This document shows positions 7,551-31,746 of a stretch of 64,000 bases of DNA, piece after piece. The position numbers were made by a program, and so were the translations under genes. How positions within the stretch are numbered: the stretch's first letter is position 1; each line of letters begins with the position of its first letter. The notes beneath the pieces are model-generated. The model had not been told where the DNA came from. It did no database searches and saw nothing but the letters and a program-made list of their open reading frames with translations. The DNA comes from Eledone cirrhosa. Its lineage: Eukaryota. The DNA is taken from positions 38,936,001 to 39,000,000 of the forward strand of contig OZ024741.1 of the NCBI GenBank assembly GCA_964016885.1, in the 5' to 3' direction.

Positions 7551-7742
7551 AGGAACCAGTAAGACCCCGACAGCTGAGCTCAAGCCGTTTCGACGGCTAA
7601 TTCTGAATTAGAATTAGCCGTCGAAACGGCTTGAGCTCAGCTGTCGGGGTCTTACTGGTTCCTATTACCCACTCTACTACCTCAAGTATTGAGTACTTTG
7701 GTGCGTTATGGTCCACCTGGTTCCTTACCACATTTCCTTCGT
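7551..7742 (+). mobile_element. ~190-bp fold-back element in (TA)n, copy A
   Basis: Perfect inverted repeat 7551-7663 plus ~78-bp tail (ATTACCCACTCTACTACC..GGTGCGTTATGGTCCA) shared with four other copies; (TA)n on both flanks. Confidence 0.9.
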
Positions 7743-8408
7743 TATATATATATATATATATATATTCTTTTACTGGTATTTCAAGCGTTAAACTCATATA
7801 TTATTTCAATGTACTGTGCCGTTTGCTTTGTTACCCTTTACACACACACACACACACATATGTATATATATTTTTGTGTGTGTGTGTCTATGTCTGTGTG
7901 TGCGTGTGTGCGTCTGTGTGTGCGTGTGCGTGTTTGTGTTTATGTGTTTATAAACATAGGTCTGCATTTAGTATTACTAACGAGAAAATGTCTAAACAAA
8001 ACATGCTGTATATATTCATTTATTTATAGATATAAAGACAATATAAACACTCAAATTCAGGACATATCAGGTTGGAAATCAAAATGGCGAATAGAATTGT
8101 TTATACTCTCCAGTTCTCATTGATTGGTAAATGACATGTGAAGGGCTTTTTTTAATCGTAAACATTGTTCCTCGGGGTTAATCACCTATTGAACATTGAA
8201 AATTTGACCCATGTCAATAAGCTGCGATTCATTTGATCAGATACTGTTTGAGAGCACTGAAACACACCTTGTGACCTATTTCAACCAATGAGATACAGAT
8301 ACCAGTAACAGTTCTCTACGCCATCTTTCCAGCATTCGTTGGCATTTACCGTGATACCGTGATACGCCTTCTCCGGCTTTATCGCGATGTATGTATGTAT
8401 GTATGTCA

Positions 8409-9019
8409 GGTCACCAGTTGGTGCTACTGGTAACATGTATCCCAGTACAACCTGGCTCATGGTCGGGTCGTTGGCAACTAAATTGGCAACCCCACCAAGG
8501 TTTCTTGGTGAGGAGGGTGACTTTGGACATCCTGCAGGACTAAAAACAAAACCTGTCAAAGAGCAAAGGGCAAAGGAACTCTTAAGAGTCCATGGCCATC
8601 CAAAATCACCGGGAGAGATGACCCCTTAGCCTTTGTCAAGGCAGAATTCTAGGAGAAAGAAAACTCTGATATAACACCTGCAACCCTGATGGTATCCAAT
8701 GATGTTGACTTGTTCTTCTTTTTGGTAAATATCATCTTGGTTAAGAGAGTGGGACTGGCTTTGTGCAGTGCCTTTGCTCACTATAAAAGCTTCACGGCAC
8801 AGGCATTGCTTTATATCTGGAGATCTCTCTGCACTTGTCGTCACATGGTACCGAGGGCCCAGCACTATGTTTCAATAATTGTCACAAGTGTAGTGTTTGT
8901 ACCAGAGTTTTCAAGTCGCTGGCTGGACTAAAATGTCACACTCGTTCAGCGCATCGGTAGGGGTTCTCCTACATGGATATAAAGTAGTGGCCGTACTCGA
9001 AAACGAGTTGGCAGCCACC
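8409..9019 (+). mobile_element. Non-autonomous RTE-derived element (5' UTR-like part + C2H2-finger 3' end) in (ATGT)n, copy 1
   Basis: Colinear with 38585-39185; 3' end encodes CSVCTRVFKSLAGLK; (ATGT)n on both flanks. Confidence 0.8.
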
Positions 9020-9719
9020 ATGTATGTATGCATGTATGTATGTATGTTCTTCTGGTTTTATAATTTCACAAATTTTTACCAATAGAGAGAGAGTCGGTTT
9101 CTAACATAGACACAAGACTCTCTCATTGGAATTAACACATCAACTAGGTAGATATGGATGTTATTGTGTATGTGTGGATGTGGATGTTTTGAGTTGTATG
9201 TGTGCATGTGTATATGCTTTGTATCTGTGCATGTGTATATGCAGTTATTAGATGCAAAATTTTTGGAATGTTTTACATATTTTTACTGTTCCATCAACTA
9301 TTTGCCTAGTCAATTTCTACAGGCTAGAATAAATAATTAGATAAGTATCATATGGCTCTACATCGCGGAAAATAATCTGTACCATTTGTCTATTATTTCT
9401 TCATAAGTACATTTTAAACTTATAGCCTCGTTTAAATGACTTTTTATGTGGTTAATTTATACTGATTGGAAGAGGAAATACTGTATATATTTTATCTCAT
9501 GATTCTTTGGACTTACATTTTTATATATAATTCTGATTAGTAATTATTTAATTAATTCTTCATTGAGACACACCATCAATGGTTGCCAAACTCATATATG
9601 TATTTGTGACTATGTCTAATTATATATAACCTTTGAATTTAATATATATATATATATATATTAAATTCAAAGGGTATATATATATATATATAATTAGACA
9701 TATATAGATATATATAATT

Positions 9720-10222
9720 ATATAAATGTAAGTCTGTATGTATGTATACGTACATACATATATGTATACAGATGTACAGTAGTATGTATATATATATATA
9801 TACATGCACATATATATATATATATATGCACGTATCGGTTTACCGAACATTTATTATAATGCTCGGTTTGTTTGTTTGTAAACAAACAAACAGCCCGAAT
9901 TACGCCGTACAGTGTTTAGGCAGGAAGGTATACGATGCTGACGATAGTTAATAAGCTTGAAACTAGTACATCGTTTCTGTGTCAGTGTTGAACAAAAAGG
10001 TGACGCGGTTGCCTAAACACTGTACGAGCATTATAGTAAATGTTCGGTAAACCGATACGTGCATATATATATATGTGTGTGCATGTGTGTATATATTTAT
10101 ATATACATACTACTGTACGTCTGTATACATATATGTATGTACGTATACATACATACTTACATTTAAGTAAGTGCCGTACTAAGAGTGAGAAATGAAATTT
10201 CGTTTCATTCTATTCCATTTAT
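9720..10222 (+). mobile_element. Fold-back element with central hammerhead, Penelope-pLTR-like
   Basis: Inverted arms ~9722-9865 and ~10026-10164; tail CCGTACTAAGAGTGAGAAATGAAATTTCGTTTCATTC shared with 11498-11730. Confidence 0.75.
9932..9974 (+). ncRNA. Minimal type I hammerhead ribozyme motif
   Basis: ACGATG-CTGACGA-weak stem II-GAA-ACTAGT (palindrome)-A-CATCGT; perfect 6-bp stem I. Confidence 0.75.
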
Positions 10223-29627: not shown

Positions 29628-30272
29628 GGTATGTATGTATGTATGTATGTATGTATGTATGTATGTATGTATGTATGTTATCTCTTTTAATTTCGAGTAT
29701 ATTTTTTTGACCGGCCACATTCCTGGTGGCAAGGTTGTATGTATGTTGTATGTATGTATGTTGTATGTATGTATGCATGTTGTATGTATGTATGTATGTA
29801 TGTATGTATGTATGTACGTATGTATGTTGTATGTATGTATGTATGCATGTATGTATGTATGTATGTTGTATGTATGTATGCATGCATGTTGTATGTATGT
29901 ATGCATATTGTATGTATGTATGTATGTATGTATGTATGCTGTATGTATGTATGTATGTATGTATGTATGTATGTATGTATGTATGTATGCATGTTGTATG
30001 TATGTTGTATGTATGTATGTATGCAGGTTGTATGTATGTATGCATGTATGTTGTATGTATGTATGTATGTATGTATGTATGTATGCATGTTGTATGTATG
30101 TATTATGTATGTTGTATGTATGTATGTATGTATGTATGCATGCATGCATGTATGTATGTATGTATGTATGCTGTATGTATGTATGTATGCATGTATGTAT
30201 GTATGCATGTATGTATGTATGTATGCATGTATGTATGTATGTATGTATGTATGTATGTATGTATGTATGTAT
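29628..30272. repeat. Long variant (ATGT)n array
   Basis: Direct reading. Confidence 0.95.
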
Positions 30273-30412
30273 GTCACAGGTGTAGTGTTTGTACCAGAGT
30301 TTTCAAGTCGCTGGCTGGACTAAAAAGTCACACTCGTTCAGCGCATCGGTAGTGGTTCTCCTAGATGGATATAATGTAGTGGCCGTACTCGAAAACGAGT
30401 TGGCAGCCAGCA
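30273..30412 (+). mobile_element. 5'-truncated copy of the RTE zinc-finger-tail element in (ATGT)n
   Basis: CHRCSVCTRVFKSLAGLKSHTRSAHR*; same 3' terminus as the copies ending at 9019 and 39185. Confidence 0.8.
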
Positions 30413-31543
30413 TGTATGTATGTATGTATGTATGTATGTATGTATGTATGTATGTATGTATATAGGTATGTGTATGTATTTATGTATCTATGTATTTATG
30501 TATGTACTGTATGTATAGAGGTATGTGTATGTATTTATGTATGTATCTTTGTATTTATGTATGTAGGTATATATGTATGTACTGTATGTATGTTTATAGG
30601 TATGTGTATATATGTATGTATGTATTCTAATATATATATATATATACATATACATACATAATATATATATATATATATATATATATATATATATATATAT
30701 ATATATATATATATATTATATATATATATATATAAATATATATATATATATATATATATTTATATATATATATATATGTATGTATGTATGTATGTATGTA
30801 TGTGTGGAGAAAGAGAGGGAATGAGGGGTTAGACAGATAGATAGATAGATAGATAGATAGATAGATAGATAGATAGGAAAATCAACAAGAAAACATGTAG
30901 GAAGAAGAGAGAAAAGCGGGAAGATATACACAGAGACAGAGAGTGAGGGACCTTGTGAGAGATATCACATGAAGAGAAAGAGGAAAAGAAGAAAACGAAC
31001 CTGAAAGACAGTGTGAGAGAGAGAGAGAGAGAGAGAGAGAGAGAGAGAGAGAGAGAGAGGGAGAGAGAGAGTGAAAGAGAGAGACTAGTATAGCGTTAGA
31101 ATCAGAGTCATGGGTTGTTTGTTGAAAAATCTGCAAGTTCTTTGCAATAGAAGAGGCGGCTATGAGATGCATTGAAGCGAAACTAAAAGATCGGCATGCA
31201 GAAAATTACTTTCACAGCGGTCGAAAGATAATTTGATTAGCCAGGGAGTAATAAGTCAAACTAGCAACATGCCATATGCACATGGTTTGCTCAAGTCTTG
31301 TTCTTGTCTATTCACTCACTGCTGTTTCTTCTACAGGTTCACGTTTACTTCTATCCACCTGCATTCAGTTAGAAAATGTTTTGATAGTCGCAAGCTGGAT
31401 AGTGGATAGAGAGAACAAGGGTTAGGGAGAACGAACAGAAAGAGAGACAGTTGGATGGAGAGATGGATATGTCTATAACACTCACATATGCATACATACA
31501 TATACACACACAGCCATATTCGTGCGTATATATATATATATAT

Positions 31544-31746
31544 AGGAAAAAGTATGACCCCGACGGCAGAGCTCAAGCCGTTTCGACGGCTATTTCTGGA
31601 CTCTCAGTCCAGAAATAGCTGTCGAAACGGCTTGAGCTCTGCCGTCGGGGTCATATTTTTTCCTATTTCCCACACTACTACTCTAAGTATTGAGTACTCT
31701 GGTGCGTTATGGTCCATCTGGTCCCTTACCACAATTCCTTCGTTTT
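31544..31746 (+). mobile_element. ~190-bp fold-back element, copy E
   Basis: Inverted repeat 31544-31664 plus the conserved tail; (TA)n flanks. Confidence 0.9.

Follow-up and report, generated by a model that had tools for sequence, protein, structure and literature searches.

Hairpin repeats between TA runs

A 64,000-nucleotide stretch of Eledone cirrhosa DNA (contig OZ024741.1, positions 38,936,001 to 39,000,000; hereafter, the window) carries five short repeats that combine a hairpin with a conserved tail, and the question that they raise is how their inverted arms originated and how these arms are related to the hammerhead ribozyme that one of them resembles. A first-pass annotation, made from the letters of this DNA, had read them as hammerheads whose catalytic strand has been overwritten by an inverted copy of the other half.

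All five of these copies (family A) have been located with their inverted arms and conserved tail, four on the plus strand and one (c4) on the minus strand. They measure 189–199 bp and share the same order, consisting of (TA)n, an inverted arm, a sense arm, a tail of 79–81 nt, and again (TA)n, with hairpins of 110–119 nt. In all of them (5/5), an inverted truncated copy immediately precedes the sense copy on its 5' side in head-to-head orientation, the tail is found at one end only, and TA runs of 12–93 nt flank both sides; runs of that kind make up 6.7% of the window. The polarity of the family was assigned by reference to the hammerhead-like half and to families B and C, described below. Copy c1 (7552–7742, plus strand) comprises two identical arms (7552–7662) and a tail (7663–7742). 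Copy c2 (10320–10518, plus strand), which belongs to a divergent subfamily, holds its hairpin at 10320–10437 and its tail at 10438–10518, and c3 (17050–17243, plus strand) a hairpin with an asymmetric centre (17050–17162) and a tail at 17163–17243. Copy c4 (17616–17804, minus strand) is a loop-less palindrome (17695–17804) with identical arms and a tail at 17616–17694, while c5 (31545–31743, plus strand) has its hairpin at 31545–31663 and its tail at 31664–31743. No sixth copy was detected in the window by blastn (E ≤ 1), the remaining matches being just 16–21 nt long.

Arms sort by copy

A 49-column alignment of the ten arms revealed 76 columns, over the ten copy pairs, that are common to both arms of one copy and differ between copies, and only one column that sorts the arms by side. 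Clustering is thus by copy, as the first-pass annotation had anticipated. In a tree of the arms, the left and right arms of c2 (support 100/99) and of c3 (90/89) pair with each other, those of c1 and c4 form identical pairs, and those of c5 are unresolved. Mismatches between the left and right arms amount to 0/47 in c1, 4/49 in c2, 5/47 in c3, 0/47 in c4, and 2/47 in c5, so that the earlier description as a perfect hairpin holds for c1 and c4 but not for the other three. Likewise, the differences between copies are generally mirrored on both arms, except that the c5 pair AAAGTATG/CATATTTT contains one mismatch and its mirroring is incomplete. The hairpin centres, with 16–25 nt separating the conserved cores, are different in all five copies, in agreement with the earlier statement that the loops differ.

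The sorting by copy, together with the 0 to 5 mismatches per copy, indicates that arm identity is set at insertion and decays afterwards. As a coarse age comparison, in which the end of the tail alignment is ambiguous, tail-private letters and arm mismatches number 1/0, 8/4, 4/5, 4/0, and 5/2 from c1 to c5. The more specific proposal that one arm is re-synthesised at each insertion fits the likeness of the arms in every copy, but an origin at the founding of each subfamily fits the five copies equally well; these two options are not distinguished by five copies, since both differences between c1 and c4 represent frequent variants (35% and 19% of X1 read depth).

Evidence from raw reads

Raw short reads from another study (read sets X1, X4, and X18 among those used) demonstrate that family A is a very common repeat family in E. 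cirrhosa, with thousands of sequence variants. In these reads, (TA)n adjoins the element at exactly two end types: the near tail end (17692), which represents an arm end without tail (3913 reads in X18 and 127 contigs in X1), and the far tail end (17604/17623/17625; 5708 reads and 455 contigs). Rare contigs, among the 15 of 27 joints listed, hold an inverted piece that starts in the tail and ends at 17658–17702, joined to a sense arm starting at 17736–17752. Reads of the c2 type continue upstream of the apex into a common sequence that is absent from the window (1906 reads, median 80 nt, agreement 0.71), and in the other types read agreement upstream of the apex stops after about 8 letters.

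The hairpins might have been created during assembly or library preparation, by long reads that fold back on themselves, and the low number of reads that cross the c4-type apex (mean depth 70–225 vs. about 15,000 in the arm) could be taken in favour of such an artefact. This depth, however, has to be read together with the differing centres and with 7214 reads that stop at AATT just before the apex, probably because of a restriction cut, and it does not report the share of full-hairpin copies. In addition, all five copies begin at the same arm base, three of them have diverged arms, about 70–100 reads reach deep into the mirrored arm, and contigs spanning the apex occur in X1 and X4. These data, along with the abundance of tail-less arm ends against (TA)n, leave the artefact a negligible probability, and the palindromes are not absent from raw reads, the outcome that the first-pass annotation would have taken as a refutation.

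A hammerhead-like half

As previously described, the sense arm contains GAAA, a helix, and a GTC triplet. In c1, this hammerhead-like 3' half (7622–7651, plus strand) consists of C-GAAA, a helix III with a palindromic GAGCTC loop, the GTC triplet (7643–7645), and GGGGTC, without the catalytic 5' strand. With strict Watson–Crick pairing, the C-GAAA/helix III/NUH pattern appears in 4/5 sense arms (c1 fails by one G-U) and in 0/5 antisense arms; it occurs in 0.5–3.4% of 5000 shuffles, having been picked after inspection of the sequence. The presence of a hammerhead 3' half in family A is more than chance, and helix III exhibits no compensatory change among the five arms. Stems I and II provide no independent evidence of a hammerhead, because their partner strands are supplied automatically by the palindrome.

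A CTGANGA core is absent from all five copies, according to a catalogue of every CTGANGA in the window, and no CUGANGA strand appears among the loose-end read rows listed (24 of 462). Upstream of the apex, c2-type reads hold an imperfect stem-II partner strand, in which, by eye, 8/9 letters pair, alongside a single wobble, mismatch, and bulge. At the core position, a heptamer likewise compared by eye matches CTGANGA at only 3/6 fixed places, for which reason the ribozyme of family A may already have lost its activity before any overwriting. When viral and metagenome contigs were screened with a pattern for the postulated parent ribozyme, the former gave no match and the latter 13, of which 0/13 hold the helix III or the tail of family A, and blastn against the family gives 12–34-nt matches only. 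These candidates were rejected as the parent, with 4/13 in low-GC contigs, resembling unrelated minimal hammerheads. The tail motif of family A had no match in either the viral or the metagenome contigs. No CUGANGA-bearing parent of the kind postulated was found in the window or among the listed reads, and the c2-type upstream core is not intact.

Hammerheads in two further families

Families B and C, also located in the window, show the same layout with intact minimal hammerheads, which makes the link to Penelope-like elements (PLEs) suggested in the first-pass annotation a strong one. Family B (17280–17603, plus strand), whose sequence is unrelated to that of A, is a hairpin of ~248 nt with a 76-nt tail between TA runs. 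Its inverted arm holds a whole type-I hammerhead motif (core at 17401, minus strand), the core is 3 nt shorter in the other arm, and the apex lies just upstream of stem I. The first copy of family C (13291–13686, minus strand), a hairpin with a tail of about 95 nt between TA runs, has a complete motif in each arm (cores at 13483, minus strand, and 13595, plus strand) and a short junction palindrome (13510–13548). The second copy (C2; 27722–28178, plus strand) has a 97-nt tail and a sense arm with a whole motif (core at 27980). This arm retains about 200 nt upstream of the motif, and the inverted arm ends inside hammerhead stem II. The inverted arm of C2 is shorter, and copy-specific letters are common to both arms, a combination that requires either two separate copyings or the copying of one arm.

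The hammerhead motifs of B and C read towards the tail. These calls rest on our own descriptor, which found 5 motifs in the window vs. 0–1 in each of 20 shuffles, and on PMC4209133. One of the five motifs (56536) is loose and was not counted as a hammerhead. No hammerhead family of Rfam gave a match in A, B, or C in searches over B/c4 and C2; over the whole window, Rfam returned generic hairpin matches below cut-offs and one tRNA, among the matches listed (150 of 426). Tail length seems to be lineage-specific, since the tails of B and C (76 nt, and 97 nt in C2) are also long, yet both families carry whole hammerheads.

Origin of the inverted arms

PLE insertions are characterized by an inverted 5'-truncated copy, a one-sided tail, and (TA)n targets (PMC8557442). 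Moreover, in work with a purified PLE protein, AT-rich DNA was nicked and extended on both strands, with synthesis starting at two internal sites on either side of the tail, and ribozyme cleavage was dispensable (PMC11167929). Family A copies are probably very short 5'-truncated insertions of this kind, in which both arms were copied from one RNA at insertion. The sorting of arms by copy, the layout common to B and C, the unequal arms of C2, the two (TA)n end types in the reads, and the rare contig joints favour this origin. In the proposed mechanism, a PLE RT/GIY-YIG protein would bind the RNA near its tail and nick a (TA)n run on both strands. Reverse transcription would be primed by one of the nicked ends at the far tail end and by the other at the near tail end, about 80 nt upstream. 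Both cDNAs would pass through the hammerhead-like region, stop 13–25 nt beyond GAAA, and be joined head to head with 0–5 filler or lost bases. The product would be an inverted arm, a sense arm, and a tail; the two arms of a copy would be identical, and copies from different source RNAs would differ. Everything further 5' would be lost, including the catalytic strand if the parent had one, and the arms would drift apart after insertion. Variable centres could also stem from later repair of the palindrome centres.

Against this mechanism, the family A tail measures 79–81 nt vs. 30–40 nt in the papers, the apex is near-fixed in 5/5 copies, unlike random 5' truncation, and reads across the c4-type apex are few. 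Pfam likewise identified no PLE RT/GIY-YIG ORF among 13 ORFs from the window, only LINE-type RT/APE and zinc fingers. In a bolder and rather doubtful version, family A would be a hairpin mini-PLE that perpetuates itself. The hairpin with its tail (190 bp) would be transcribed and re-inserted in trans, the cDNAs would meet at the apex, and each round would restore a perfect 55-bp hairpin using the tail-side arm alone.

A single priming event might also suffice if, within the same PLE origin, the cDNA snapped back in or beside hammerhead stem II and copied itself. Such self-copying would produce arms that sort by copy, and the pivots do lie at the ribozyme in A, in B (just upstream of stem I), and in C2 (inside stem II); the partner strand just upstream of the c2 apex would favour such a fold, and the palindromes at inverted junctions of rotifer PLEs have been interpreted as self-priming (PMC3846280). 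Nevertheless, a fold-back within a natural stem-II loop would leave an identical loop in every copy, and the five distinct centres speak against the earlier proposal that a fold-back within stem II is the source of the arm. Copies c2 and c4 have no loop at all, c2 mirrors the whole putative loop, and the fillers of c3 and c5 differ from the next template letters in the reads. The inverted arm of C2 lacks about 230 nt present in its sense arm, with no palindrome at the junction, and snap-back alone does not explain why copying stops exactly at the near tail end. Taken together, self-copying of the cDNA appears unlikely.

A DNA-level foldback or MITE-like element inserted in TA sites, with arms homogenised after insertion by gene conversion or template switching, would account for the small size, high copy number, TA target, lack of an ORF, and near-fixed length. 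This origin is considered very improbable: the inverted repeats are not terminal (5/5 copies have the 80-nt tail outside the right arm), the diverged arms of three copies indicate that homogenisation is not ongoing, and two unrelated families with the same layout carry hammerheads.

Significance

Under the preferred reading as truncated PLE insertions, family A is likely ordinary genomic debris of a known kind, with a slightly unusual near-fixed size. Its unusual traits are the near-fixed apex, the 80-nt tail, and the high copy number. Self-priming at PLE inverted junctions has already been published (PMC3846280), and how PLEs form inverted units has been named as an open question (PMC8557442). 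With thousands of short variants holding two arms and a junction, two-strand priming could be weighed against snap-back within one genome, by counts of junctions and of private mirrored changes. Arms that are identical at insertion would offer an LTR-like clock, and if the dense 55-bp hairpins were transcribed, they could hypothetically supply substrates to ADAR or small-RNA pathways. If the self-perpetuating version were true, what looks like a MITE would actually be a retroelement that lacks a ribozyme and keeps a fixed size, and the divergence of its arms would serve as a clock for each insertion.

Comparison with known systems

The 5' inversions of L1 elements are generated by twin priming, in which one RNA is primed twice from two target strands and the ends are joined. 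Twin priming inverts the upstream part without duplication, whereas in family A both cDNAs would cover the same stretch, giving a hairpin. An origin as a tRNA/5S/7SL-derived SINE was rejected, as no tRNA, 5S, or SRP match was obtained over c4 up to E 10, where the 18 matches are of hairpin type or due to chance. In c1 and c5, an open frame runs across arm and tail; it was dismissed as coding, given that c2-type arms are 2 nt longer. No published description of family A appeared among the paper listings surveyed.

The minimal type-I hammerheads of metazoan PLEs (PMC4209133) exhibit a C before GAAA, a palindromic helix III/loop 3, and pairs of motifs on opposite strands 100–700 bp apart, a description that applies to the window's families B, C, D, and E. 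Family A differs in holding the 3' half only; its helix III is longer (19 nt inside), and a CUGANGA strand was not found. Like family A in the preferred reading, non-LTR retrozymes (10.64898/2026.07.22.740005) and the non-autonomous Chlamys/MRC1 (PMC8557442) are short non-coding PLE derivatives moved in trans; these, however, form head-to-tail tandems that contain whole ribozymes or pLTRs, while each family A copy is one head-to-head unit that lacks a whole ribozyme.

Poseidon PAc from the green anole (PMC11167929) shares with the mechanism proposed for family A the order of a hammerhead followed by two RT start sites bracketing the tail, and it is here that both AT-rich strands are nicked and extended with ribozyme cleavage being dispensable. 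That work concerns another element in vitro and does not spell out the joining of the inverted arm, and no protein is known for family A. The insertion unit of EN+ PLEs (PMC8557442; PMC3846280), composed of an inverted 5'-truncated copy, a pLTR, and a one-sided tail, resembles family A in its head-to-head inverted copy with a junction palindrome and a tail at one end, in a (TA)n or AT-rich target and with no readable target-site duplication. Family A departs from this unit in having no ORF, an insert of only ~190 bp, a longer tail, a near-fixed apex, and its thousands of variants.

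Hairpins with one-sided tails between TA runs

The window was read as animal DNA because it is rich in microsatellites and holds LINE-type ORFs. All five family A copies claimed by the first-pass annotation were located in it by sequence and blastn: c1 (7552-7742), c2 (10320-10518), c3 (17050-17243) and c5 (31545-31743) on the forward strand, and c4 (17616-17804) on the reverse strand. Each comprises a hairpin of 110-119 nt and, after it, a 79-81-nt tail, and both flanks are TA runs of 12-93 nt, a kind of run that makes up 6.7% of the window.

The ten arms were compared in a 49-column alignment. 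Summed over the 10 copy pairs, 76 columns are common to both arms of one copy and different between copies, whereas one column sorts by side, which confirms that the arms are alike per copy. Left and right arms match throughout in c1 and c4, to which the description "perfect hairpin" can be applied, but show 4, 5 and 2 mismatches in c2, c3 and c5, respectively. Given these by-copy columns and the 0-5 mismatches, the arms start alike and drift afterwards, and are not maintained alike. Each of the five copies has a different centre, as had been noted for the loops: a loop is missing from c2 and c4, 5 and 3 letters are unpaired in c1 and c5, respectively, and the centre of c3 is asymmetric.

Between 17050 and 17804, c3, an element of family B and c4 are three insertions linked via common TA runs, and tail-to-arm chaining of the same kind was observed elsewhere in reads (joint 17604-17692, 26 reads, among the joints listed). 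For these reasons, older insertions seem to provide target sites for subsequent ones.

Sister families and other features of the window

Every stretch between TA runs in the whole window was scanned for an inverted start. This recovered the five A copies, the family B element (17280-17603, tail of 76 nt), copy 2 of family C (C2, 27722-28178, tail of 97 nt) and a tail-less element with inverted ends (family E, 9828-10062). Copy 1 of family C (C1, 13291-13686) is interrupted by an inner TA run. B and C hold whole type-I hammerhead motifs oriented towards the tail. Our own hammerhead descriptor found five motifs in the window (four in B and C, one loose), compared with 0-1 per shuffle in 20 shuffles, while an Rfam search over the B and C motifs recognised none. 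A relaxed descriptor added motifs at 26151 (family D, textbook minimal) and 9938 (family E). The inverted arm of C2 ends within stem II, and its sense (tail-side) arm retains the core and ~200 nt more; at least three letters are common to both C2 arms and unlike both C1 arms.

In C1, whole motifs occur on both strands (13385-13690, 110 nt apart); a transcript of either strand would therefore contain a motif and base-pair with its counterpart. Family D comprises two copies that are 85% alike, 26124-26278 (+) and 46844-46999 (-), and fragments at 16374-16405 and 7767-7833; its hammerhead (core at 26151) lacks loop 3, no inverted arm was seen, and its ends lie near (CATA)n or (CA)n, not (TA)n. 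The family E element lies between TA runs and has inverted ends of 43 nt, a (GTTT)n/(AAAC)n mirror inside and a whole motif. A decayed hairpin with 74-bp arms (21007-21181) has a short stretch in common with it.

Palindromes with TA runs at the centre and unique arms are found at 9621-9682, 24992-25121 and 11532-11643, the arms of the first resembling the end of the family C arm. Immediately left of the TA run of c3, a short GC hairpin followed by CTAG (16985-17020) resembles the 3' terminus of Helitron-type elements. A LINE-type retroelement (265-4736, -) is the location of an APE-RT ORF of 863 aa and an upstream ORF1, and a broken relative lies at 40-44 kb (40617-43872, +). A broken RT-like stretch without Pfam match (5654-7149, +) was likewise grouped with the LINE-type retroelements. 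The window also contains a tRNA-like sequence (63155-63226, +; 42 bits, above the Rfam cut-off), either a gene or a SINE head.

Family A in sequencing reads

Four of 20 listed runs (X1, X4, X5 and X18) were compared with positions 17585-17775; the rows listed were 24 of 462 for loose ends, 15 of 27 for joints and 40 of 86 for variants. Family A is abundant, with matches in 19,120 of 17.1 million contigs of X1, 505 contigs of X4, 44 of X5 (other organism label) and 24,950 of the 12.5 million raw RAD reads of X18 (other study). The element meets (TA)n at two kinds of end, namely the tail far end (5708 reads and 455 X1 contigs) and the tail near end at 17692, which corresponds to a tail-less inverted arm (3913 reads and 127 X1 contigs). 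Collinear continuation into the mirrored arm is ~70-100 reads deep, and at least one X1 and at least one X4 contig, among those listed, span the apex (the hairpin centre). These short-read and contig data confirm the palindromes in raw data and exclude an assembly artefact; an assembly or library origin, contradicted by the reads, is extremely improbable. Depth at the c4-type apex is 70-225, against ~15,000 in the arm, which counts against a simple picture. Just before this apex, 7214 reads stop at AATT, probably a restriction cut.

The two c1/c4 differences are frequent variants (at 35% and 19% of the depth in X1, among the variant rows listed) and therefore mark subfamilies, not single insertions. 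The per-copy identity fits re-making of the arms at each insertion, as had been proposed, and equally re-making at the founding of each subfamily. A few contigs run past the tail end at 17604 (X1) and 17625 (X5) into a common T-rich, non-TA stretch (three contigs, two organism labels, agreement 0.5-0.69, among the loose ends listed), which is possibly, as a weak candidate, the body of the parent RNA.

The hammerhead question

The right arm had been proposed to carry hammerhead geometry. A pattern that requires C-GAAA, at least two pairs, a loop with a six-letter palindrome, and a T-H triplet is found with strict pairing in 4/5 sense arms and 0/5 antisense arms, and in 0.5-3.4% of 5000 shuffles per arm, the pattern having been chosen afterwards and the copies being related. 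The evidence for a hammerhead 3' half is thereby suggestive only: the GAAA, a helix and the triplet are present as described, but stems I and II prove nothing because the palindrome itself supplies them. None of the five copies shows a compensatory pair in helix III, which is mismatched in c2, c3 and c5. Since the core strand is absent, filing family A as a hammerhead ribozyme was rejected.

In the c2-type subfamily, 1906 reads pass the c2 apex into a common sequence that is not palindromic (a median of 80 nt at an agreement of 0.71, possibly from few loci). On visual inspection, an imperfect stem II partner around a 7-nt loop lies within the first 30 letters of this sequence, with the c2 apex at the edge of that loop; just ahead of it, at minimal-hammerhead spacing, CTAATAC occupies the place of CTGANGA (3/6 fixed letters), and these reads show no convincing strand for stem I. 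The imperfect partner strand lends some support to a putative pivot near stem II, but with such a core the intact hammerhead-bearing parent that had been postulated is not borne out. In the other types, each of the four runs shows agreement past the apex over ~8 letters, after which it is lost (0.44-0.58); single X4 and X5 contigs resemble hairpins with the apex a few bases farther out. Four low-GC metagenome contigs (L003, L007, L010 and L013) hold minimal-hammerhead-like motifs fitting the parent pattern, with flanks unrelated to family A.

Origin of the hairpins

Two primings on one RNA are the best reading of these hairpins, and one that we consider reasonably probable. A nick in one strand would prime at the tail far end, producing the sense arm and the tail, while a nick in the other strand would prime at the tail near end, producing the inverted arm joined to the left TA run; the two cDNA ends would then be joined, with small fillers or losses. 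The geometry of family A fits this scheme exactly, and TAT at the tail near end matches the target. The near-fixed apex lies outside this scheme and may reflect either a ribozyme fold that halts the enzyme, as the pivots of B and C2 suggest, or, as a rather doubtful option, a hairpin scar that now serves as the template itself.

Snap-back of a single cDNA would also yield the mirror, but it is unlikely, as it leaves the differing, partly non-templated centres and C2 unaccounted for. The same objections face the earlier version of this idea, fold-back within stem II, in spite of the mirror and of the c2 apex at the stem-II loop edge. A DNA foldback element is very improbable, given a tail external to the inverted repeats and arms that drift. 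A role of the hairpins as ADAR or Dicer substrates, as the first-pass annotation suggested, would be hypothetical.

Comparison with known systems

Family A is real and abundant, and most likely adds a new family to a known type of Penelope-like retroelement (PLE) insertion, a putative membership based on layout and company rather than on a linked ORF. According to Craig et al. 2021 (PMC8557442), PLE insertions are truncated at the 5' end, where an inverted truncated copy is frequently found; they carry a 30-40-bp tail at one end and target (TA)n, and how the inverted units form is there called unresolved. Palindromes at the inverted junction have been interpreted as self-priming (Arkhipova et al. 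2013, PMC3846280). With a purified PLE protein, nicking and extension were shown for either strand of AT-rich DNA, from two internal start sites flanking the tail, and ribozyme cleavage was dispensable (Frangieh et al. 2024, PMC11167929). Minimal hammerheads, with opposite-strand pairs 100-700 bp apart, were defined by Cervera and De la Pena 2014 (PMC4209133), retrozymes are treated as PLE derivatives in a preprint (10.64898/2026.07.22.740005), and PMC8969392 is a curation guide. Family A resembles the insertions of Craig et al. in its inverted copy, one-sided tail and (TA)n target, but its tail measures 79-81 nt, in contrast to their 30-40 bp.
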